Below are positions 31,939 to 43,471 of a DNA stretch of 64,000 nt, piece after piece. The position numbers and the translations under genes were made by a program. How positions within the stretch are numbered: the stretch's first letter is position 1; every line of letters starts with the position of its first letter. The notes under the pieces are model-generated. The model did no database searches, was not told where the DNA came from, and saw nothing but the letters and a program-made list of their open reading frames with translations. The DNA is from Candidatus Thorarchaeota archaeon (GTDB lineage Archaea > Asgardarchaeota > Thorarchaeia > Thorarchaeales > Thorarchaeaceae), in NCBI GenBank assembly GCA_963726195.1, contig CAVSBO010000013.1, forward strand, positions 71,038 through 135,037. Direction: 5' to 3'.

Positions 31939-33328
31939 ATGAGCGATCCGGTAAGAGACGAAGGTAACTCAGACTTCTATGCAAGGCTGGGAGTCGAACC
32001 GATGGGCAAAGAAGGGCGCACTCATTTCAGCAACGAACTGACGCCGGACATTGCTGGAAAGGATGTCGTGCTAGTCGGATGGGTTCACATACTTCGCGAC
32101 AAAGGTAAGCTCAAGTTCCTCATCCTTAGAGATGAACATGGCACTGCTCAGGTTACAATATCGCAGGAGAAGGTTCCTGTAGATGTGTTTGCCCTTTCCG
32201 GACAGCTAAAACCTGAGTCAGTCATCGCTGTCAAGGGCAGAGTTGTGAAAGCTGGACAGGTCGATAGGGGAGTCGAAGTCGTACCGAGTGGAATACGTTT
32301 GATAAACACTGCAGAGCGGCTTCCTATAGACATTGTCGAGGGAAAGGTCGACATTGACCTGGAGACCCGTCTCAACAACCGCATTCTGGATTTACGAAAG
32401 CCAAGAGTGAGTGCCATTTTCCACGTGCAGCATTGTCTGGTGAAATCGGCTAGAGAGTATCTGCTCAAGAATGGATTCATCGAGATACATACCCCCAAGC
32501 TTGTGGCCGAGGCCACTGAAGGGGGTGCAAACCTCTTTGAAGTCAAGTACTTCGAGAAAAAGGCGTACCTCGCGCAAAGTCCCCAGTTCTACAAGCAGCT
32601 CATGCTTCTAGCAGGATTCGGAAGAGTCTATGAAGTCGGGCCTGTATTTCGGGCTGAAAAACACAACACACGTCGTCACGTCAACGAATACACGTCATTC
32701 GATTTCGAGATGTCTTGGATCAGCGGCGTTGAAGATGTCATGAAGATGGAAGAGAAAATGCTCGAGTACGCGATTAAGCAGACAGTAAAGGAAGCGTCTG
32801 CCGAACTCGAGTTGCTTGGTCTGAAGGTCCAAGTACCCAAGGTGCCATTCAAGAGAATCAAGCATGCTGAAGCGATTGATCTGGTGAACGAGACGGGCAA
32901 GCAGCTGATCTTACGAGGACGACCTTGACCCGGATTGTGAACGAATTCTGGGCGACATCTTTCCGGAGAAGTACGGCACGGACATGGTATTCATAACCCA
33001 TTACCCGCTATCGCTCAGGCCTGCCTATACAATGCCTAGTCTTACTGACGAGGGGAAGACAGAGAGCTTCGACCTTACCTACAAGGGCATGGAGATTACT
33101 ACAGGCGGCCAGCGCATACATCTGTACAATCTTCTGGTTGAACGATTCAAAGAGAAAGGCTTCGACCCGGAGCATTTTGCGTTTTACCTCGACCCGTTCA
33201 GGTATGGAGTTCCCCCGCATGGAGGACTGGGCCTCGGAGTAGAGCGGTTGACGATGCAAGTCCTCGGAATCGAAAATGTGAGGGAAGCCACTCTATTCCC
33301 AAGAGACCGTGACAGACTGACTCCTTAG
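31939..33328 (+). CDS. aspS: Aspartyl-tRNA synthetase, archaeal type (indel near 32908)
   Basis: OB fold GWVH..RD.G, TRLNNRILDLR, YLAQSPQFYKQ, FRAE, GGQR, PPHGG.GLGVERL, LFPRD. Confidence 0.95.
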
Positions 33329-33395
33329 TGCAGTCACTATAATACTCTCACTTAAAGCAGAAATCGCGGCAACCTACAGTGGCCCAGCGGCATCC

Positions 33396-34162
33396 ATGTC
33401 AATTCCAAAAAGGTGCCAAACAATGGACGAACCACTGCAATCCGAGCTCTTTGCATCAATCGCTACACTGGACCAGCTCAAGAAAATGTACGACATGGGT
33501 GTTATTGATATCAGATCGTACGAAAGGGAGTCCGAAGCATTGATTGCAGAGGTTCGGAACTGCATCGAACAGATGCGCCGGACCGGCCTCGACATAGGGA
33601 GTTTCGTCGGTCAGGCTCGGAGTATCAGAGTCTTTTCCTGATGCATCAAGCATGTTGGGTCTGCATGGGCGAGCCAATAAGCAACCAATCGGAGGGATGA
33701 CGGCCGATCAGTACTATGACTACATCGGGCTTGCTATCCTTGATGTGGCTACTGCAAACTCGTCGAAGGGTTTGATGGGACTTGCGGAACTCATTGTTGA
33801 GGTCGTTCGGTTGTTGCCGGAGCTGAAGTCTGTCAGCTACAATGACGTGATTGAAGCTGTAAACCGAGTGTTCTCAGCACGGATTGATACCCGGCATCCG
33901 AACGCTCAGGGGAGGAGTCAAGGTCGTTGAGCTACGACCATTGGAGCTCCGCCGTGACCAAGCGGACGTGATCAATGCTGCTGCAACCAAAGGCTACATC
34001 TCCGTGGAAGAGCTCATGATGCAGCTCAAATGGTCCGAAGACCACGCCCGTCAAGTGCTTTCCAGTTTGGTCGACGCTGGTATGGCAGTGGCAGACATAC
34101 GGTTCTCCACAGGCGGTCGTTATTACTTCCCGGGCCTAAGGCCAAGGGATAGTACCGTATAG
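33396..34162 (+). CDS. Vps28-like N-terminal hairpin fused to ESCRT-II Vps22/Vps36 (EAP30) winged helices (indels near 33612 and 33871)
   Basis: SELFASIATLDQLKKMY..GVID..SY...LI (Vps28-like); QYYDYIGLAILDV...GLMGLAEL...VSYNDV..AV...PLEL..DQ..V...KGYISVEEL...LKWS..A..L..L...GMAVAD...YYFPG (EAP30). Confidence 0.75.
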
Positions 34163-34210
34163 AAAGGCATACTCATTTTCAGTCATTGACTTTGACTGAG
34201 TTAGGATTCT

Positions 34211-34924
34211 TCACACCGCTACCACTATCGCGCCTTTCTTGGAGTCCACCCACTTTGCCATTTTCCTGTCAACCATTATCTCCAAGATGCGATGCAAGTC
34301 TCTTTCGGGAAGCTTCGAAAAGTCTTGCGCAGTTTCCTGTACAATGATTGACTGCACGTCCAGACGTAGTTTGCCTGTTTGGATAGCCCAGGCACGTATC
34401 ATATCTGCCCATTCTTCAAGAGGTCGCCAGTACACCCGAAGCTGCCTTCTCTTTTCGTCCAACCACTCGCCAACATCATTCTCAACTAACCAGTCCCCTA
34501 TCAGCCTGAACGCTTCTACCTTTCCAAGTATGTCGCTGAACGGTCTTTCCTTGATGAAGGTCGATACTGACAGAACGTGAATACTCCCAGACTCAGTCCA
34601 TACAATCAGGAACTCGGCCCATTCTTTCTCCCACGATTCTTTGTCTTCTTCTCTGGGTGGGATGCTATACATCCATCCTGACTGTTTTGGGCCGCCCCAA
34701 GATGGCGTAACAAGAACGGTAGCTTGTACGGGTACCGACTCCGGCGCGGATTCAGTCAGAGTAGATTCGAGTCCTTGAGATAGTGAAGTTTCTTCAGCTC
34801 CGGCTTCTACGACATCAACGAGAGCGTTAGTCTTCGTTGTTTCGTCCTCAGCAGAAGCCTCAGTTGCTCGTTTGGGAGCTGCCTTCTGTCGTTCCTTCTC
34901 TTTCCGGCGTTCCTTGACTTCCAA
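34211..34924 (-). CDS. vps25: ESCRT-II Vps25 homologue with disordered N-terminal extension
   Basis: WMYSIPP, W..EW..FL, GEWLD......VYWRPLEEWADMI..W, F..L...L..IL; co-transcribed with vps4. Confidence 0.85.
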   Translation of the reverse strand: MEVKERRKEKERQKAAPKRATEASAEDETTKTNALVDVVEAGAEETSLSQGLESTLTESAPESVPVQATVLVTPSWGGPKQSGWMYSIPPREEDKESWEKEWAEFLIVWTESGSIHVLSVSTFIKERPFSDILGKVEAFRLIGDWLVENDVGEWLDEKRRQLRVYWRPLEEWADMIRAWAIQTGKLRLDVQSIIVQETAQDFSKLPERDLHRILEIMVDRKMAKWVDSKKGAIVVAV

Positions 34925-34927
34925 AAC

Positions 34928-36157
34928 CTAAGATGCCTCCCCCCATTCGATGTACTTCCTTACGTCTTCTGGTGGCGTGCCGGGTCCAATGCTCTCGATG
35001 GCCCGCAGAAAGTCCGCTCTGGAGACCGGGCGGAGTTCGGATACTGTGCCATCACGATCTGTTTCTTCTCCGCGCTGTAAATCCCTTATTGGCTCCATCG
35101 CAGCCTCTCGACATACCACAGTGATGTCCCGGCCACTGTAGCCCTCGGTCAGGTCAGCGAGCTCTTCGAAGTCGACCTCAGAAGACATGCTGACTCCCTC
35201 CATCTGGATTTCGAATATCCTTCTCCTTGAGGCTTTCCCTGGCAGCGGGATAAGGATCTTCTTCTCGAATCTCGACCTAAGAGCGAAATCCAGTTCCCAT
35301 GGAAGGTTCGTAGCGCCAATGACAGTTACCCTTTCGTCAGGTTGGCTTGTGAGTCCCTGTAGTTCTGTCAACAACTGAGTCTTGAGGCGTCTCTCGCCCC
35401 CGACGTCGTGGCCTGTCCTCGAAACGCCCACTGAATCAAGCTCATCCATGAAGATTATAGAAGGCTGATTCTTTCTCGCCATTTCGAATAGAGTCATGAC
35501 GAGCTTCTCAGACTCGCCCAGCCACTTGCTCACTATGTTTGCAGCGGAGACATTGAAGAACGTTGCATGCACTTCAGATGCCACAGCTCTTGCAATGAGG
35601 GTCTTGCCACATCCAGAGGGTCCATAGAACAGGATGCCCTTCCACGGTTGCCTTGATTTTCCTTTGAAGAGTTCAGGGTGCTTCATTGGTGTTATTATGG
35701 CTTCTTGGATTGCTTGCTTCGCGTCTTCCAGTCCCGCAACCTCAGACATTTTCGAGTCGGGCCGTTGGGCGATGATTGTGTCAGCGATAATTCCCTGAAG
35801 GTATCTCGCATCTTCATTATCATCATCTGTTTCCTGAAATCCTCGACTGGCTGAAGTCGGTTCGCGTCTCTCAACTGGACGTGTGGCAGGCTTGCTTGGA
35901 ACTGACGGTCGGTCTACCTGTCTCGTCTTGATGCCTGAGATGTATCTTACCCGATCCACGCACTCTTCGGCCCTGCTCAGGTAGTGTTTCTGCAATGACG
36001 GAAGGGATGAGGAATTGGAGAGCCTGATGAGTATCATGCTCACTTTGAGATAATAATGAGATGCCTCTTTCTGCAGTCCCTTCCTGTCGAGCTCTATGGC
36101 CTTTTCGAGTAGAGCCTTGACTCCGAGGTCAAGGCGGTCCGCGTCTGTTCCTGACAT
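34928..36157 (-). CDS. vps4: Vps4 AAA+ ATPase with N-terminal MIT domain
   Basis: MIT (KAIELD...A..YY...YLSRAE); VAGLEDAKQAIQEAII.P, PWKGILFYGPSGCGKT, SKWLGESEK, FMDELD, GATNLPWELD, EGYSG.DI. Confidence 0.93.
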   Translation of the reverse strand: MSGTDADRLDLGVKALLEKAIELDRKGLQKEASHYYLKVSMILIRLSNSSSLPSLQKHYLSRAEECVDRVRYISGIKTRQVDRPSVPSKPATRPVERREPTSASRGFQETDDDNEDARYLQGIIADTIIAQRPDSKMSEVAGLEDAKQAIQEAIITPMKHPELFKGKSRQPWKGILFYGPSGCGKTLIARAVASEVHATFFNVSAANIVSKWLGESEKLVMTLFEMARKNQPSIIFMDELDSVGVSRTGHDVGGERRLKTQLLTELQGLTSQPDERVTVIGATNLPWELDFALRSRFEKKILIPLPGKASRRRIFEIQMEGVSMSSEVDFEELADLTEGYSGRDITVVCREAAMEPIRDLQRGEETDRDGTVSELRPVSRADFLRAIESIGPGTPPEDVRKYIEWGEAS

Positions 36158-36305
36158 TCGAGTCCGGGAGTCAAGTGTGACTGAATGGTTAAGAGTTTCT
36201 GTGTTTCCCTGCGTGATACTGTTCCGACTCTTCTATGCGTCCAGAATACGCGTTTGCTACGAAGGCTTAAAGGCGCAGGCCTCGCAGGACCTATGAAGTT
36301 CATTA

Positions 36306-36938
36306 TTGGACATGGTGAGGTCGTTGGGTACGGCGAAGAAGGCTATGACTTGGGGCCGCAGAAAGCCAGACGTCGCAGAGGTGACCAGTCAGCTAAGAAT
36401 CTTGGGCAAGGAGCTCGAGCGAGAAAGAAACCGGCTCGAGAAGCAGGAAGTTGAAACCAAGACAAGGGCTGTGCGAGCCCGAAAGGATGGCCACATGGAT
36501 GGTTACAAGACTTACGCAACAGAGATGATACGCTTTAGGAAATCCGCCTTGTCTATTGACAAATCGCGGCTTCATCTTCTGAGGTTTCTTTCATCCATCA
36601 TTCACGCTCAGTCCGCTGCCAAGACAAACTTGGTTGTTGAAAAGGTCGCCAAGATTCTGGGGCTTTTTGTTGATGCCAGAGACTCTGCCAAGCTTGTTCG
36701 GAACCTCGACGAAATCACTCGACGGTTGGACGCGATCGAAATCGAGGGGTCCATATCGGACGAGACCTTCGACTCTATGAAAGACAGCAAGGTGACATCG
36801 GAGGAGCTAGCCGCAGCAATGCAGGAAATTGACGCGGCGGCTGGTGCTGAGGAAGCTGCTTCTCGGGCGGGCCCCGCTACCGAGGCTGAGAGACTCGAAG
36901 AGGAGATCAAGTCGCTAGAGAAGGAGCTGGGAGTTTAG
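36306..36938 (+). CDS. ESCRT-III subunit (Vps2/24/46, CHMP1-like class)
   Basis: Basic N-terminal helices (LERERNRLEKQE..K..A..A.KDG..D..K.YA.EMIR.RK), acidic C-half, MIM1-like ERLEEEIKSL tail; divergent from vps4. Confidence 0.85.
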   Translation: MDMVRSLGTAKKAMTWGRRKPDVAEVTSQLRILGKELERERNRLEKQEVETKTRAVRARKDGHMDGYKTYATEMIRFRKSALSIDKSRLHLLRFLSSIIHAQSAAKTNLVVEKVAKILGLFVDARDSAKLVRNLDEITRRLDAIEIEGSISDETFDSMKDSKVTSEELAAAMQEIDAAAGAEEAASRAGPATEAERLEEEIKSLEKELGV

Positions 36939-36939
36939 T

Positions 36940-38511
36940 CTAGCGCCCTAAGCCTTGACTTCTCCCAGAAGCCGTATCCAGTCGTTTTCTTGTCTCAAAT
37001 GAGTCTCGCATCAGCCCCTTGTATCGTCTAATGAAGTCCTCGGGGACCAACTGACCATTCCTCAACAGACGAACCGTTTCTTTTGCGGCATCGTCGATTG
37101 CCATAGCATCTCTTCTGAGTCCTATCATCTCGGAAGAGTCAGGGGCCTTCGAAGGTACTCCATCTGCACCGAACAAGCCACCCAAGTCTGGGCCAATCCT
37201 ATCACGGTATTGCATAGGCAACGTTCGTGCATCATTGCCTGCAATGCCTCCGAAGGGGTAGTAGGAAGATGATCTTTGGTCGAATGTTCTGTATGCTCCA
37301 GATGACATTGACCCAGCTTCTGGTTTTCCACCCGCATAGAGCAGGGAATAAGCAAGTTCCTCAACCTTTAGCCTAACGTCACTGATGTTCACATCGGTCT
37401 GTCCAAGTTTTCTTGTTCGCTGTAGGTCTGATTGCATGTACTTGTCGAAACTCTTGGCAATCTCCACGTAGTCTGGGAGAACACTCTCAGTTTGCTCACT
37501 ACATGATATCTTGATGTCCCCCTGTTTCATTCTGAGGACTACCCTTCTCCTCAGCCTGCCATCTTCCTCGATGCTCTTCATGTATGCTAGAGGAACATCA
37601 AACACGATGTCTGTCTTCTTACGCAATCTTCCGGTTTCAGCTATGAAGACGAATCTCTTGTTGGTAATGTATAGGGTTCCATTTGCCTTGTCATTCTTCA
37701 CGAAGTCGCTGCCTGCAATCCTTATGTCTGGAAGAGCACACACCGGCAACTCGTTGACAGATAGTTCGGCAGTCTCATAGAAACCCGAGAATTGCTTCCT
37801 GTAATAATCCAGTCCGTCCAGCTGTTGTTCGATGTCTACCAGACTCAGTCTCGACTCCTCGATTGCATCGTCGACGTTCTTCTTGTACTGGCCGACGAGT
37901 TGAGTGACTCGATTCGTGACGCCGCCCACGAAGGGGAATTGATCAGCTGACCAAGCGGCGGAATCAAGGAGTCCCTTTGTTTCGGCAACCATTTGCCTTG
38001 AGACTATCTCCGCCTGACTTGTGACTCTGTTCTTGATAGCTGGGAGTTCCATCTCAATGTTCTCAATCTTCTCCTCAAGCCAGCGATAGTGGAGAAAGTT
38101 TGCCATTCTCAGAGAAACCAGAAGTCTCTTGGCTGAGGTCAGTTGATTGGTGAAGTCCCGCAAGCGTGTGTATCCATAGTGGAGAGTCATTATTGCTCGG
38201 CGCAGGTCTTGAGCAAGTGCCTTCCTTTTCTCCTCGATAGGTGTCGTGCGTGTGGAGTGGCACCTAGGGCAGATTTCTTCTAGTCGCTTGCCAACACTGA
38301 GCTCGTGAGAGCCACATTCTGGGCATTTCTCAAACTTCTCGCCTGGCGCGGGCGTTCCAAGGCCGTGATGACAATTGCTGCAGACGTAGTGTTCGCTTGA
38401 CTTGGTCTTCAGGCAATCCAAGCACAGTACTTCTCCACAATCCTCACAGAGGTGCGTCGCTCTGTTCGCCTTGCAGACTTTGCATAGATGGGTAGACGGT
38501 TCGTTGCTCAA
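36940..38511 (-). CDS. Zn-finger + coiled-coil + PH/GRAM-like + Vps23 steadiness-box protein (ESCRT-I-like)
   Basis: Six CxxC pairs; GTLYITNKRFVF..VPL..MKSIE (PH/GRAM); C-terminal AIDDA.....LLRNGQL..EDFIRRYK.L.R..F (steadiness box); SD GGAGG before TTG at 38511. Confidence 0.7.
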   Translation of the reverse strand: MSNEPSTHLCKVCKANRATHLCEDCGEVLCLDCLKTKSSEHYVCSNCHHGLGTPAPGEKFEKCPECGSHELSVGKRLEEICPRCHSTRTTPIEEKRKALAQDLRRAIMTLHYGYTRLRDFTNQLTSAKRLLVSLRMANFLHYRWLEEKIENIEMELPAIKNRVTSQAEIVSRQMVAETKGLLDSAAWSADQFPFVGGVTNRVTQLVGQYKKNVDDAIEESRLSLVDIEQQLDGLDYYRKQFSGFYETAELSVNELPVCALPDIRIAGSDFVKNDKANGTLYITNKRFVFIAETGRLRKKTDIVFDVPLAYMKSIEEDGRLRRRVVLRMKQGDIKISCSEQTESVLPDYVEIAKSFDKYMQSDLQRTRKLGQTDVNISDVRLKVEELAYSLLYAGGKPEAGSMSSGAYRTFDQRSSSYYPFGGIAGNDARTLPMQYRDRIGPDLGGLFGADGVPSKAPDSSEMIGLRRDAMAIDDAAKETVRLLRNGQLVPEDFIRRYKGLMRDSFETRKRLDTASGRSQGLGR

Positions 38512-38708
38512 CGGGATGCCTCCGAACATCTGGGTTCGAGTTATGCAATAGAGCGTCCTGAATAATTGGCTATGTATCACACAAGTATTAGTCAATCCAA
38601 GTCGCTTTGAGGCAGGTTGGTACAACTGTCTGGCCACTTGCAGCAGCTTGTTTTGTCCGGATTGGTTATATCACGTAAAGCGCGCTCGAATCACGGGAAG
38701 AACCGGAC

Positions 38709-40094
38709 ATGGAGAACCTTGCGCAGGCTGCAATTGAGGCTGCTCTGAAGGCCGGAGCCGCTTTTGCAGACATCAGGATAGAAAACACAGTTACTACGAT
38801 TATTGAGCTTGACGACGGAGTCACGAAGCGCTCGATGGCTTCTCAATTGAAGGGGGCAGGGATTAGAGCGTTCTTCGACGGGGCATGGGCGTTCGGTCAG
38901 ACCACGGACCTCACCCCTGCTGGCATGCGAAGCACGGCAGTCTCTGTCGCTAAGATGGCTATCGCCACACATGGCAGAGTTGCGGAGAAGTTCAGTATTG
39001 ATGGACCTGCTTTCAAAGACAGTATGCCTCTCAAGGTGAAGCGCCCGTTCCAGGATGTGCCAGTCGAAGAAAAGGTTGCATTCGTTAAGACGATAGATGA
39101 ACAGGCTCGAGGCTATGACAAGAGGATAGTGAATGTTCGGACATCGTATGGCGACCTGTGGACGGAGCTTTACGTAGTCAATTCTCTGGGCACGAGTGTC
39201 TACATCGAGAACTCATTGCCGCGCCTTTCCTGTGCAGTCACGGCCAAGGACGGATCCAACAGACAGCGAGCATTCAAGTCAGTGGGGGCAAAGGGCGGCT
39301 TTGAAGAGATGGAAACCGAGCGTGCTCAAGCGGTTGGTGAAGAGTCTTCCAAGCTGGCGGTTGAACTGCTGTCTTCTGTTGCTGCAAGGGGCGGAGTGCA
39401 TGACGTCATCATGGATCCGGTTTTCAATGGAGTGATGGTGCATGAAGCGTTTGGTCATGCATGTGAGGCAGACAATTGGCCAGCTCACACGACGGTGCTA
39501 GAGGACAAGATGGGAAAGGTCGTGGGACCTGAGCACCTCAACCTGACTGATGATCCGACGCTTGAGGGCATGCGTGGTTCGTTCCCGTATGATTGGGAAG
39601 GAACCAAGACCAGAAAGAGGCATCTTGTCAAGCGTGGCGTTCTTTCAGAGCTACTGCATAGCATTGAGTCTTCTAGCAGGCTCAGCATGGAACCAAACGG
39701 TGCAGCAAGAGCCCAATCTTTCACGAGTGAACCGATTCCTCGGATGAGCAATACATTCATGGAGCCTGGTGATTGGGGAGTTGACGAGCTAGTCTCAGAC
39801 ACACGTCAAGGAATCTTGCTCTGCGACTTCAACTACGGTTACACAGAACCATCAAAGGGGCAGTTCATGTTTCAGGCGAGCTATGGTTACCTCATAGAAG
39901 GTGGAGAGGCCGGACAGATGGTTCGTGATGTATCGATTGCAGGGCAGATTCTTGAGGTGCTTCCGAAGATAGACGCCGTAGCGAATGATTTCAAGTTGGA
40001 AGCAGGCAGTTGCGGCAAGGGCGGTCAGTGGGTTCCGGATATGAGTGGCGGGCCGCATGCCCGCATACGTGCGGTCCCCGTAGGAGGCATGTAG
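38709..40094 (+). CDS. tldD: TldD metalloprotease
   Basis: FADIRIE, HEAFGHACEAD, DDPT, DWEG, PRMSNT, CGKGGQ..P. Confidence 0.92.
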   Translation: MENLAQAAIEAALKAGAAFADIRIENTVTTIIELDDGVTKRSMASQLKGAGIRAFFDGAWAFGQTTDLTPAGMRSTAVSVAKMAIATHGRVAEKFSIDGPAFKDSMPLKVKRPFQDVPVEEKVAFVKTIDEQARGYDKRIVNVRTSYGDLWTELYVVNSLGTSVYIENSLPRLSCAVTAKDGSNRQRAFKSVGAKGGFEEMETERAQAVGEESSKLAVELLSSVAARGGVHDVIMDPVFNGVMVHEAFGHACEADNWPAHTTVLEDKMGKVVGPEHLNLTDDPTLEGMRGSFPYDWEGTKTRKRHLVKRGVLSELLHSIESSSRLSMEPNGAARAQSFTSEPIPRMSNTFMEPGDWGVDELVSDTRQGILLCDFNYGYTEPSKGQFMFQASYGYLIEGGEAGQMVRDVSIAGQILEVLPKIDAVANDFKLEAGSCGKGGQWVPDMSGGPHARIRAVPVGGM

Positions 40095-40095
40095 T

Positions 40096-41445
40096 ATGAC
40101 ACAGCAACTCACAGAGCTAGCGGAAAGAACAGTCAAAGCCGCAGAACGGCTTGGTGCTGAACAGGCTGAGGTGTATGTTGGCTCGGCGCGGTCTTTCTCG
40201 ATTTACGTTGAGAACAATGCAATCAAGAGTGCAGCCGAAAGAAGAGACGCTGGATGCGGCATACGATGCGTGTTTGGAAAGAAGATAGGCTTCGCTTACG
40301 TGACCACGCTCGACGTTCACGACATCGAGAATGCTGTACGCAGGTCCGTTGCTTTGGCAAAGGCATCGGTCGCTGACCCCGACTTCGTGAGTCTGCCTAC
40401 TCCTGAGTCACATTACCCGGTTGTCAAGGGTTTGTTTGACAAGGCCATTGAAGGTTTGGATGCTGAAGAAGCTGCTGACCTAATTGCAAGATGCGTGGAT
40501 GCTGCGAAAGAGCCCGTGCAGAAAAGGCAGTACGCGATTCAGGCTGATCTGAGTGCTTCTTCGGGAAGCAGGGCAATCGCCAATTCTCTCGGAATATCAC
40601 TGTCAGGCAAATCGACTTCTGCGATAATAGATAGCGACGTGACAATCAAAGAGGAGGGAGACCAGACATCAAGCGCTGAGTACCAGGTCTCACGTGCGCT
40701 GAACGGGATAGACCCCGAATGGGTAGGCAGGACTTCCTCAGAGAACGCATTGCAGAACCTCGGAGCCAAGACAATCGAAGGAGGCGAGATGTCGGTGATT
40801 CTGACCCCTCTTGCAGCAAGTGTGGTCATCGGATCGGGTTTTGCAGGCGCCATCAATGCGGAGGAAGTCCAACAGGGGCGCTCCTACATTTCAGATGCAA
40901 TTGGTTCAGAGATTGCTTCGGACAAACTTCGCATTTTGGATGATGGTTTGCTCATGGGTGGACTAGGATCACGAGCATTCGACGCAGAAGGCGCTCTCTC
41001 TCAACGGACCGAGGTGTTGAAGGGTGGCGTGCTGAAGAGTTTACTTCATAGTTCCTATACTGCCAACAAGGATCGAGTTCCCAACACGGGCAATGCCTCT
41101 CGACCCTCGTATGCTGGCATACCGATGATTGCAACTACCAACTTCGTGGTTGAGCCAGATCGCGGCACGCTCGAGGACCTAGTTTCGGAAGTGAAGAAGG
41201 GTGTTCTTTGCAGGAGCACGGATGACCGGCCAAATATGACCACAGGCGATCTGAGCGCTATGGTGATGGAGGGTTTCTACATTGAGGACGGTGAGATTCG
41301 AAAAGGAGTCAAGAGCACGCTCATAGGTATCAACATGCGCGACCTGCTCAAGAGGGTTAGCCGTGTCGGTGCTGATACAAGAGCCACCATGTCCATGGTT
41401 ACACCCTCCATAGTCATTGACTCCGCCAGAATAACCTCCGGGTAA
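40096..41445 (+). CDS. tldE: TldE/PmbA partner subunit
   Basis: GAEQAEVY, FDAEG, TGNA.R, TGDLS, no HExxxH; follows tldD. Confidence 0.9.
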   Translation: MTQQLTELAERTVKAAERLGAEQAEVYVGSARSFSIYVENNAIKSAAERRDAGCGIRCVFGKKIGFAYVTTLDVHDIENAVRRSVALAKASVADPDFVSLPTPESHYPVVKGLFDKAIEGLDAEEAADLIARCVDAAKEPVQKRQYAIQADLSASSGSRAIANSLGISLSGKSTSAIIDSDVTIKEEGDQTSSAEYQVSRALNGIDPEWVGRTSSENALQNLGAKTIEGGEMSVILTPLAASVVIGSGFAGAINAEEVQQGRSYISDAIGSEIASDKLRILDDGLLMGGLGSRAFDAEGALSQRTEVLKGGVLKSLLHSSYTANKDRVPNTGNASRPSYAGIPMIATTNFVVEPDRGTLEDLVSEVKKGVLCRSTDDRPNMTTGDLSAMVMEGFYIEDGEIRKGVKSTLIGINMRDLLKRVSRVGADTRATMSMVTPSIVIDSARITSG

Positions 41446-41446
41446 G

Positions 41447-43471
41447 CTACATACGTTCGACAGCATGTATCCCAAGTATTCTCAAACAGTTCGCCATGGT
41501 CGTTCTGAATGCTTTCACGAGTTCCAGCCGCGCTGCTGCTATTGCAGGCTCCGCCTTGAGTACGGGGCACGAGTCATAGAACTTGCTGAAGAGGTTTGCC
41601 AGACCGTAGCCATAGGAAGCAATCTTGTTCGAGTAGAAGCTCGTTCCCCATGTGGTTTTCCTTAAGCTCTTAACGGTCTCAAGAATCTCTTCCGGAAACA
41701 TCGCTACCGCTTTTGCCAGGGCAAATTCACTTGCCGACGATACCAATGTGAGATCGACTTCTCCTTGAGCGTCCTCTGAGGCTTTCTCAATAATCCTCAT
41801 GGCTCTCGCGTGTGAGTACTGGAGATACGGAGCGGCGTCTCCATCAAAGTCGAGTGCTTCGCTCCATCTGAAGGTTATCTTCCTGTCTGGAGAGGCCTTC
41901 AACAGCATGTATCTAACAGCCCCCGTTCCAACCTGGTGCGCTACTTGTCCCTTGAATTCATCGGTTTCGTCCGGGTTTCTCTTTGCCACTTCATCGCATG
42001 CCAGCTCAACTGCCTTATCGAGAATCTCATCTACTGTGTATCCAATCCATGTCCCTTTCCTTCCGGAGAAATCAGTATCCTCAAGGCCTACGAATTCATA
42101 GGCCACATGATGAGAGTTCTCACTCTGGGTCTTGTAGCCCAATAGATCAAGAATCGTGTAGATGAGTCTCTGGGGTTGGGCCTGTGAAGAACCTATCACG
42201 TTGAATACAACATCGAACTTTCCTATGTTCTTCTTCTTGCCCTTCAGAGATGTTCTGAGGACTTCCTTGCCATTGGGCTGCTCATCAAAGACTTGGTATC
42301 GGAAGGGATCTTGGACTATCCCGAATTTCCACATCTGAAGTGCCACATCAGCGCCTGTGTAGGTCCTTGTCCCGTCTGACCTGAACAATACCTTGTAGGG
42401 TTCCTTCATATCCTTGAATTCGTCGATGGTGTCCAGTTTGACGACAATGCATCCTGCTTTGTCTCCTTCATCGAGCCTGACGACGTTGTCACATCCCAGC
42501 ATCATGTCTTTGGCCGCCTCAAGCAGACCGCTGTGTGCAATGTCGCTTTCCCAGACTTGGTAATCATGATAGATGCCTAACCTGTAAGCCGTCTGGCATT
42601 GGGCTAAGAGACAGTTCGTTACCATGCCGATGCTTCTCTTCGAAGCTTCCGAGTCTGGGTATTCAAGCTGTCTCGCAATTTCCCGTATTTCGCGCTCCAC
42701 TTCCTCATCTGTTTCGAACGCTTTCTGGACATCAACGTATAGGCGTCCGAGATAGTGATCGTACTTGGTGTCTGTGGGATTCTCTGCATCATGAAGATGC
42801 TTCCACGTTCGCAGTGCGATTTCCAGCATTGGATTGTTTATGTAGTCAATTCTTTCATCATAATGATCGTAGTTGGTGTCTGTGGGTTTCTTTGTATCAT
42901 ACAGCAGCTTCCACGCTAGCTGTGCAATCTGCAACCCTAGGTTGTTTATGTAGTCAATTCTTGCGACGTCGTATCCCACGATCTCCAGCACGTTGCCAAG
43001 CATATCGCCGAGCACTGCATTTCTCGCGTGTCCGATGTGCCAGGGTTTGGACGGGTTGACTGCAGGAAACTCAATCAATGCCCGCCGACCCTTGTACGCA
43101 GTGGTTCGGCCATAGTCGTCGCCCAGCTGGTTCACAGCTTCGATTGCTATCTTCGCAAACTGACCGCGATTCAAGAAGAGATTCACATAGGGCCCCTGCG
43201 ACTCGGCGTGCTCAAAGACTGGCATTGCCTCCAGGCGTGCCGTGATCTTCTCAACGATTTCGTTTGCGATTTGTGCGGGGTTCTTCCTGAGCTGTTTGGC
43301 AAGCTGAAATGCTATCGTTGAGGCAATATCACCAAGAGCCGGGTCCGGTGGAATCTCGATTGATTCTCGCACTCTCGCGTCATCAATCTGCGTCACTTCA
43401 ACGAGAAGCGAGATGGCGAGCTCTTTGGTTGCGTCCCACGGATTCTTGAACTGCCCATCACTGGTTGCCAT
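41447..43471 (-). CDS. argS: Arginyl-tRNA synthetase with 36-aa internal duplication
   Basis: NPSKPWHIGHARN (HIGH), RSDGT.TY, FSGRKG, PYLQYSHAR, FY..CPVL, C-terminal ERM. Confidence 0.95.
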   Translation of the reverse strand: MATSDGQFKNPWDATKELAISLLVEVTQIDDARVRESIEIPPDPALGDIASTIAFQLAKQLRKNPAQIANEIVEKITARLEAMPVFEHAESQGPYVNLFLNRGQFAKIAIEAVNQLGDDYGRTTAYKGRRALIEFPAVNPSKPWHIGHARNAVLGDMLGNVLEIVGYDVARIDYINNLGLQIAQLAWKLLYDTKKPTDTNYDHYDERIDYINNPMLEIALRTWKHLHDAENPTDTKYDHYLGRLYVDVQKAFETDEEVEREIREIARQLEYPDSEASKRSIGMVTNCLLAQCQTAYRLGIYHDYQVWESDIAHSGLLEAAKDMMLGCDNVVRLDEGDKAGCIVVKLDTIDEFKDMKEPYKVLFRSDGTRTYTGADVALQMWKFGIVQDPFRYQVFDEQPNGKEVLRTSLKGKKKNIGKFDVVFNVIGSSQAQPQRLIYTILDLLGYKTQSENSHHVAYEFVGLEDTDFSGRKGTWIGYTVDEILDKAVELACDEVAKRNPDETDEFKGQVAHQVGTGAVRYMLLKASPDRKITFRWSEALDFDGDAAPYLQYSHARAMRIIEKASEDAQGEVDLTLVSSASEFALAKAVAMFPEEILETVKSLRKTTWGTSFYSNKIASYGYGLANLFSKFYDSCPVLKAEPAIAAARLELVKAFRTTMANCLRILGIHAVERM
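42752..42962. repeat. Diverged 108-bp tandem duplication inside argS
   Basis: atagtgatcgtacttggtgtctgtggg...tgtttatgtagtcaattctt recurs with a period of 108 nt. Confidence 0.9.

Follow-up and report, generated by a model that had tools for sequence, protein, structure and literature searches.

How an ESCRT-I/II apparatus might choose its membrane or cargo where no ubiquitin is encoded is the question raised by a 64,000-nt stretch of a Candidatus Thorarchaeota genome (assembly GCA_963726195.1, contig CAVSBO010000013.1, positions 71,038 to 135,037; hereafter the window), which contains five adjoining genes for components of the ESCRT membrane-remodelling machinery. The locus is the standard, conserved five-gene ESCRT cluster of Thorarchaeota, an Asgard group without a eukaryote-type ubiquitin system. 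As a whole, the explanation that we favour, and consider probable, consists of this ubiquitin-less cluster together with an adaptor mechanism and a loss scenario, both of which are set out below.

Gene organization and conservation of the cluster

The five genes were identified by open reading frame (ORF) listing and Pfam searches of the window and are as follows.

33423-34162, + strand: Vps28-N-domain::Vps22 fusion gene (weak Pfam match to VPS28 at the N-terminus, then EAP30; corrected product, 245 aa)
34211-34924, - strand: Vps25, ESCRT-II (Pfam PF05871, E = 6e-12)
34928-36157, - strand: Vps4 ATPase with MIT, AAA, and Vps4_C domains (Pfam)
36306-36938, + strand: ESCRT-III, Snf7 family, assigned by its matches to the IIIB class (Pfam Snf7, E = 3e-7)
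36940-38529, - strand: Zn-finger/coiled-coil/PH/steadiness-box (SB) protein, 529 aa, ATG at 38529

The genes adjoin one another on mixed strands: those for Vps25 and Vps4 run in the same direction with 3 nt between them, the ESCRT-III gene is divergent from the Vps4 gene, and both outer genes are convergent with their neighbours. A first-pass annotation made from the sequence had described five adjacent ESCRT genes in mixed orientation, and this description was confirmed apart from breaks induced by the assembly; all of its domain calls (the Vps28 N-domain with Vps22, Vps25, MIT-Vps4, ESCRT-III, and the Zn, PH, and SB modules on one chain) also hold. In a synteny survey of the host's Thorarchaeal family (f1), both end genes of the cluster were located on one contig, 3.2-5.3 kb apart, in 17 of the 17 genomes in which both had been placed, and the five-gene grouping is therefore not a random arrangement. 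The host assembly, with a completeness of 88.9%, spans 2.9 Mb over 19 contigs; the closest contigs bearing a name are those of Candidatus Thorarchaeota OWC5 and OWC3.

Absence of ubiquitin, UEV, and canonical Vps28

Profile searches detected neither UEV nor E2 in the 88.9%-complete host genome or in the surroundings of the cluster, and no ubiquitin in the host genome, the sole match having an E-value of 0.76. The searches were extended to 40 relatives, i.e. 24 genomes of family f1, one of another family of the same order (f2), and 15 other Asgard genomes; the host genome is excluded from these counts. Ubiquitin and UEV were found in none of the 25 f1 and f2 genomes, whereas 13 and 11, respectively, of the 15 other Asgard genomes contained them, and E2 gave only two sub-threshold matches in f1 and f2 as opposed to 13 of the 15 others. 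The absence of ubiquitin, E2, and UEV genes near the cluster, which had been noted at the outset, was thus borne out and extends to the genome as assembled and, above threshold, to the lineage. Full-length Vps28 above the curated cut-off was likewise missing from all 24 f1 genomes but present in 11 of the 15 other Asgard genomes, and the single f2 match to the Vps28 model falls inside the orthologue of the fusion protein itself. A stand-alone Vps28 C-domain, found in several other Asgard families, was not found in f1 and f2 (0/25). In the host genome, neither canonical Vps28 nor a separate Vps28 C-domain was found, and no canonical UEV-Vps23 or stand-alone Vps28 was found there or in the family. 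Vps37, Mvb12, and Vps36 were undetected in the Thorarchaeal system, and NCBIfam provided nothing useful for the ESCRT-I/II proteins. The host genome does encode beta-grasp proteins of the ThiS/MoaD type (six genes) and an E1-like protein of the ThiF type (one gene), and these genes all lie away from the cluster.

A 411-aa, all-helical protein (G000:C3:845462-846694; L015:841-2073) was considered as a stand-alone Vps28 and rejected, as it scored 0.5% against canonical Asgard Vps28 in hhalign. It has a weak, sub-threshold match to PF03997 (model positions 10-185), which recurs in four relatives, and its family profile reaches the Xenopus Vps28 C-domain structure 2j9w at an E-value of 0.025 only. 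The protein is conserved in most Asgard families and coexists with canonical Vps28 in other Asgards. Separately, a 185-aa protein (L016:1477-2034; G000:C3, ~159610-160167) carries a C-terminal 'YEKGRIDRDEY' hairpin motif that resembles the Vps28 and SB hairpins; it scored 27% against the Vps28 hairpin in hhalign and matches GvpG below threshold, and may be a steadiness-box protein that stands alone.

The Vps28-N-domain::Vps22 fusion protein

The segment 33423-33679 (+) encodes a Vps28-type helical hairpin followed by short helices. In hhalign comparisons of family profiles, residues 1-85 of the fusion protein align with positions 13-106 of canonical Asgard Vps28 (98.3%, E = 2.5e-14), so that the Vps28 N-terminal core hairpin domain is present, and only residues 87-244 align with canonical Asgard Vps22 (99.8%). 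The Vps28 match stops at position 106, and the C-terminal four-helix bundle of Vps28, the ESCRT-II binder, is not in the fusion. When compared with PDB chains, the N-terminus matches the yeast Vps28 N-domain weakly (E = 0.12-0.2), and the family profile matches human SNF8/Vps22 at 1.8e-19 versus 0.8 for Vps36. The AlphaFold2 (AF2) model (mean predicted local distance difference test score, pLDDT, 80.5) contains a hairpin at residues 3-54 (helices 3-24 and 30-54, pLDDT ~90), short helices, a linker, a helix, and two winged helices, with no PH domain, and human and yeast Vps22 chains rank first for this model in Foldseek. The EAP30 tandem winged-helix region, initially labelled 'Vps22/36', accordingly keeps only the first part of that label: as judged from these matches, it is Vps22-like and not Vps36-like. 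Because the fusion lacks the Vps28 C-domain, which is the non-covalent ESCRT-I/II linker of eukaryotes, the covalent ESCRT-I/II link proposed in the first-pass annotation is a fair reading.

The N-termini of Vps22 from two other Asgard families do not resemble Vps28 in profile comparisons. Among 151 Asgard genomes, full-length matches to the fusion were obtained only in families f1 (26/26) and f2 (1/1); outside these families only the Vps22 part matches, except in a few paralogues, in which the match sets in around residue 35-43. Sequence clusters of the intact fusion protein number more than 120, and nearly all bear the label Thorarchaeota. The fusion therefore tracks the ubiquitin-less lineage, being present in all 27 ubiquitin-less genomes and in none of the approximately 120 others sampled.

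As assembled, the fusion gene is divided into three ORFs in three frames (33396-33641, 33652-33930, and 33884-34162). Alignment to two congeners located two 1-nt insertions, at ~33622 and at 33871. The base at 33871 is absent from a 465-nt public-run contig (X3 record 13) that has zero mismatches to the window, and the base at 33619/33622 is absent from the X1 and X2 contigs of a near-identical strain; the X3 and X4 contigs leave 33196-33600 uncovered, so the insertion at ~33620 is contradicted solely by contigs of the near-identical strain and not by identical ones. Beyond each shift the coding sequence retains full conservation. The congeners G002 and G001 have intact orthologues of 245 aa; another is protein P0001, which differs from the read-through of the window by three residues and the frameshift junction and was used as a proxy for the corrected product. 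Since matching public-run contigs lack the extra bases, the breaks are assembly errors and do not reflect pseudogenization.

The aspartyl-tRNA synthetase (AspRS) gene at 31939-33328 of the window also falls into two frames, owing to a single additional base near 32907 that is absent from X4 record 16 (zero mismatches) and from the X1 and X2 contigs; this break, too, is an assembly indel. Three indels within 2.4 kb suggest an unpolished long-read assembly in which many genes are falsely broken. A second ESCRT-III gene of the Snf7 family (L024:1447-2150; G000:C3, ~747858-748560), unlinked to the cluster, has an ORF that stops after 129 aa, and another frame continues with a typical acidic, MIM-like C-terminus. 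This split is probably another assembly indel.

The Zn-finger/coiled-coil/PH/SB protein

The modules of the protein encoded by the fifth gene (hereafter Zn-CC-PH-SB) were delimited using an alignment of 25 orthologues and an AF2 model (pLDDT 80).

38239-38493, - strand: Zn module with twelve invariant cysteines in six CxxC pairs
37789-38238, - strand: three long helices, residues 98-247 (AF2 secondary structure, pLDDT ~85-96)
37453-37746, - strand: PH/GRAM/GLUE-like beta-sandwich that ends in a helix, residues 262-359
36952-37134, - strand: Vps23/TSG101-type SB helical hairpin, residues 466-526 (profile matches and model)

The cysteines that are invariant in the alignment are C16, 19, 28, 31, 36, 39, 50, 53, 69, 72, 87, and 90. 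The profile of the Zn module matches the RNF4 RING in the PDB (E = 1.4e-4), with weaker matches to PHD, FYVE, and B-box domains, and the module resembles a cross-brace of the RING/B-box type with a Zn ribbon after it. The nearest single-domain Foldseek matches of the PH domain are the GLUE domain of EAP45/Vps36 (2hth_B, TMt 0.59; 2dx5_A, TMt 0.65) and the GRAM-PH domain of MTMR2; Pfam gave weak GRAM and Vps36_ESCRT-II (GLUE) matches in this region. Conserved basic residues of the domain (R292, R303, K304, R325, and R327) are clustered. A disordered linker (residues 401-461) precedes the SB hairpin, whose two helices (466-490 and 496-526) are modelled with pLDDT >90 and whose profile matches the yeast Vps23 core (2p22_A, E = 1.2e-5; 2f66_A, 8.3e-5; 2caz_A, 9.8e-5) and TSG101 (6vme_B, 1.6e-3).

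Pfam matched neither UEV nor UQ_con in this protein, which also lacks an EAP30 region, so the Vps36 layout, with GLUE and EAP30 on one chain, does not apply. Because UEV is missing from both the protein and the host genome, the protein is Vps23-like in the stalk and SB only, and not a Vps23 orthologue. Its layout, with Zn, coiled coil, PH, and SB in one chain, is that of asCOG 011556 (Znr_CC_PH_SB). All 24 family genomes have the gene, and the sample contains homologues from seven Asgard families that bear ubiquitin; in six of these seven, UEV was matched too. In one ubiquitin-bearing genome (G025), the gene lies on the same contig as, and ~4 kb from, the genes for UEV-Vps23, Vps28, a Vps28 C-domain, and Vps22. 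On this contig (G025:C44; L069, 5772-9296 and 1605-2672), genes for Zn-CC-PH-SB, ESCRT-III, UEV-Vps23, Vps28, the Vps28 C-domain (104 aa), and Vps22 fall within ~8 kb, forming a fuller version of the Thorarchaeal cluster. The Zn-CC-PH-SB chain is thus an old Asgard component and not a Thorarchaeota-specific stand-in for UEV-Vps23, as it is found in Asgards that have ubiquitin and UEV. Of the rewiring proposed earlier, the placement of the PH and Zn modules on a Vps23-like chain stands, but a redistribution of Vps36 parts specific to Thorarchaeota is not supported, given the homologues in the seven ubiquitin-bearing families.

Vps25, Vps4, and ESCRT-III

In Vps25, an acidic N-terminal stretch of ~75 aa, which is probably disordered, precedes two winged helices, and the protein matches the archaeal structure 7pb9_A, 'Tandem WH domains of Vps25' (E = 1.1e-28). 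Vps4 has a strong Pfam AAA match (E = 8.6e-40) and sub-threshold MIT and Vps4_C matches, and aligns in one continuous stretch with residues 16-364 of human VPS4B (E = 1.8e-80). The PDB matches of the cluster ESCRT-III, namely CHMP1B (E = 2.8e-5), the Heimdallarchaeota ESCRT-IIIB structure 9ftl_A (E = 6.3e-5), CHMP3, and CHMP2A, point to the IIIB class (Vps2/24/46, CHMP1/2/3). As read from its sequence, the amphipathic C-terminal tail of this protein shows the MIM1-like L-x3-I-x2-L spacing, although the consensus is incomplete.

A second EAP30 protein

A further protein of 750-850 aa (L019:1399-3456, G000:C3:709817-710251; orthologue in G002, L095:1252-3645) carries a C-terminal, Vps22-like EAP30 double winged helix. 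The N-terminal part of this ~800-aa protein is large and uncharacterized. Its conservation extends across the Thorarchaeal family and order; in one other family, shorter EAP30 proteins of ~605 aa were matched. An additional EAP30 match, in a 1221-aa frame on contig C10, was rejected as the winged helix of an intein-containing MCM. The gene concerned (L020:1459-3333; G000:C10) encodes an MCM helicase with an intein bearing a LAGLIDADG domain, and the EAP30 match is spurious.

Proposed mechanism

In the mechanism that we propose, the Zn-CC-PH-SB protein would be held on the membrane by its GLUE/GRAM-like PH domain, and perhaps also by the Zn module. By analogy with the headpiece of eukaryotic ESCRT-I, its Vps23-type SB hairpin would pack on the Vps28-type hairpin of Vps22, and an ESCRT-I-like adaptor would thereby be joined straight to the ESCRT-II-like Vps22/Vps25 module, with a peptide bond replacing the contact between the Vps28 C-terminal domain and Vps36 of eukaryotes. 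Vps22, which is reported to self-associate in Thorarchaeota, would act with Vps25 to recruit ESCRT-III, Vps25 serving as the nucleator, and MIT-Vps4 would recycle the ESCRT-III polymer through its MIM-like tail. As to the origin of this arrangement, the most likely course is that the ubiquitin/E2/UEV module disappeared from the lineage, as did the Vps28 C-domain, and that the pan-Asgard Zn-CC-PH-SB protein was retained. A more specific version is offered tentatively, as a possibility on the unlikely side: in the Thorarchaeal order, the Vps28 N-domain may have moved onto Vps22 as the Vps28 C-domain disappeared along with ubiquitin, E2, and UEV, yielding a ubiquitin-independent, covalently bridged ESCRT-I/II adaptor with Zn-CC-PH-SB as its sole upstream selector.

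Several points weigh against the favoured explanation. The eukaryotic ESCRT-I headpiece consists of three hairpins, contributed by Vps23, Vps28, and Vps37, whereas only two were identified here. The host genome is, moreover, 88.9% complete, and the conserved ~800-aa EAP30 protein may be an extra ESCRT-II-like subunit. For the last reason, the 'minimal three-chain' ESCRT-I/II supercomplex envisaged in the first-pass annotation is unproven.

Alternative explanations

The apparent lack of ubiquitin, E2, and UEV genes would be trivial if they resided in the unassembled 11% of the host genome, as a completeness of 88.9% would allow. However, none was found above threshold in the 24 family genomes and the one same-order genome, many of which are 95-98% complete, although identical searches succeeded in most other Asgard families, and the same absence is reported in PMC9192718 and in the preprint of Lu et al.; we regard this explanation as highly improbable. 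It is equally hard to believe that the host organism carries the fusion gene as a genuine pseudogene and that the ESCRT-I/II bridge is therefore broken. The two frameshifts in the assembled sequence would suggest as much, but the zero-mismatch contig lacks the base at 33871, near-identical contigs lack that at ~33620, the sequence following each frameshift is fully conserved as coding, and breaks of the same type affect the essential neighbour AspRS and the second ESCRT-III gene.

The remaining alternatives concern what the cluster does. Cargo might be tagged by an archaeal ThiS/MoaD (SAMP/Urm1-like) protein, attached by the single E1-like enzyme with no E2; its reader would be either the Zn module or the GLUE-like PH domain of the Zn-CC-PH-SB protein. 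The ThiF-type E1-like gene and the six ThiS/MoaD-type beta-grasp genes in the genome are consistent with such tagging, as is the structural proximity of the PH domain to the ubiquitin-binding EAP45/Vps36 GLUE domain; yet all of these genes are unlinked to the cluster, and in most prokaryotes, as seen in the control genomes, ThiS/MoaD proteins serve as ordinary sulfur carriers. We consider this improbable, but it qualifies the earlier suggestion of selection without ubiquitin, which holds as regards the absence of ubiquitin, E2, and UEV and does not extend to ThiS/MoaD-type tags. A better case, albeit still a rather unlikely one in our view, can be made for the absence of any cargo sorting. The cluster would then be a membrane-scission machine that serves cell division, the budding of vesicles or protrusions, or the repair of membranes, with Zn-CC-PH-SB as merely a membrane-site adaptor, like the CdvA that recruits CdvB. 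ESCRT-III and Vps4 perform scission in TACK archaea (PMC10936438), SB hairpins are related to CdvA in the Lu et al. preprint, and no ubiquitin cargo-recognition module was found. In other Asgards, however, the Zn-CC-PH-SB family coexists with a ubiquitin/UEV sorting module, which suggests a role within the sorting pathway. A scission function also overlaps with, and does not exclude, the adaptor mechanism that we favour.

Relationship to described systems

An earlier description of the architecture, which the first-pass annotation had named as counting against its reading, does exist: the layout is already published (PMC10936438; PMC9192718 and its supplement) and partly tested. Makarova et al. 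2024 (PMC10936438) classify an SB-fused Vps22 as asCOG cog.002769, 'Vps22#', and Znr_CC_PH_SB as cog.011556; the latter they regard as likely to belong to ESCRT-I and as probably ancestral in Asgards, its PH domain being associated with the membrane. Hatano et al. 2022 (PMC9192718) describe Thorarchaeota as seemingly lacking ubiquitin, and their sequence supplement includes ThorAB25_08990|SB, 09020|Vps25, and 09030|Vps22, which were used in yeast two-hybrid assays. These three proteins are plainly orthologous to those of the present cluster, and the ThorAB25 locus numbers fit the same cluster. For the ThorAB25 proteins, PMC9192718 reports an interaction of the SB protein, self-interaction of Vps22, and contacts of ESCRT-I/II with ESCRT-III, and the legend to its Supplementary Fig. 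8 names RING, CC, PH, and SB modules (drawn RING-CC-PH-SB). The Lu et al. preprint lists Loki- and Thorarchaeia as lacking UEV-Vps23.

The 529-aa Zn-CC-PH-SB protein, whose host is a Thorarchaeon of freshwater or peat, belongs to asCOG 011556 and is directly orthologous to ThorAB25_08990|SB, with the same module order (Zn fingers, coiled coil, PH, and C-terminal SB) and no substantive difference; the function predicted for the family in PMC10936438 agrees with the one proposed here. The fusion protein corresponds to asCOG 002769 and is the orthologue of ThorAB25_09030|Vps22, sharing the N-terminal helical hairpin and the Vps22 tandem winged helices; what differs from the description of asCOG 002769 is that the hairpin is here assigned specifically to the Vps28 N-domain and that full-length matches are restricted to two ubiquitin-less families. 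These are the increments of the present analysis, i.e. the Vps28 N-domain type of the Thorarchaeal Vps22 hairpin and the confinement of the fusion, in the sample searched, to the ubiquitin-less order. The Vps28-type identity of the Thorarchaeal Vps22 'SB' and its strict co-occurrence with the lack of ubiquitin may be unstated in the published accounts cited here.

With the eukaryotic ESCRT-I/II supercomplex (Vps23-Vps28-Vps37-Mvb12 and Vps22-Vps36-2xVps25), the Thorarchaeal system shares a homologous Vps23-type SB, Vps28 N-domain, Vps22/Vps25 winged helices, and GLUE-like PH domain, and ESCRT-III and Vps4 act downstream in both. In Thorarchaeota, however, the PH and Zn modules reside on the SB chain and not on Vps36, the Vps28 N-domain is fused to Vps22, and ubiquitin and the Vps28 C-domain are absent. 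In Odin-, Heimdall-, Loki-, and Helarchaeota (PMC9192718), Vps22, Vps25, Vps4, and ESCRT-III are likewise clustered, and many of these clusters include Zn-CC-PH-SB. Ubiquitin-bearing Asgard clusters additionally contain ubiquitin, E1/E2, UEV-Vps23, full-length Vps28, and sometimes a separate Vps28 C-domain gene.

Having homologues of ESCRT-I, -II, -III, and Vps4 but no ubiquitin, Thorarchaeota are a natural experiment: the way in which membrane or cargo is chosen there would reveal the role of ESCRT-I/II prior to ubiquitin, or in its absence, and bears on the origin of eukaryotic endosomal sorting. This significance has already been recognized in the literature, and orthologous proteins have already been cloned. 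To this the window contributes a further member, a warning on the quality of the assembly, and a slight refinement of the identity and distribution of Vps28-N::Vps22.

Genes flanking the cluster

The cluster is flanked by housekeeping genes, namely those for AspRS, an aminotransferase, a TldD/PmbA pair, and arginyl-tRNA synthetase (ArgRS). The tandem TldD/PmbA-family metallopeptidase genes (38709-41445) directly adjoin the cluster, with no evident link to ESCRT, and the ArgRS gene (41447-43471) lies beyond them on the opposite strand.

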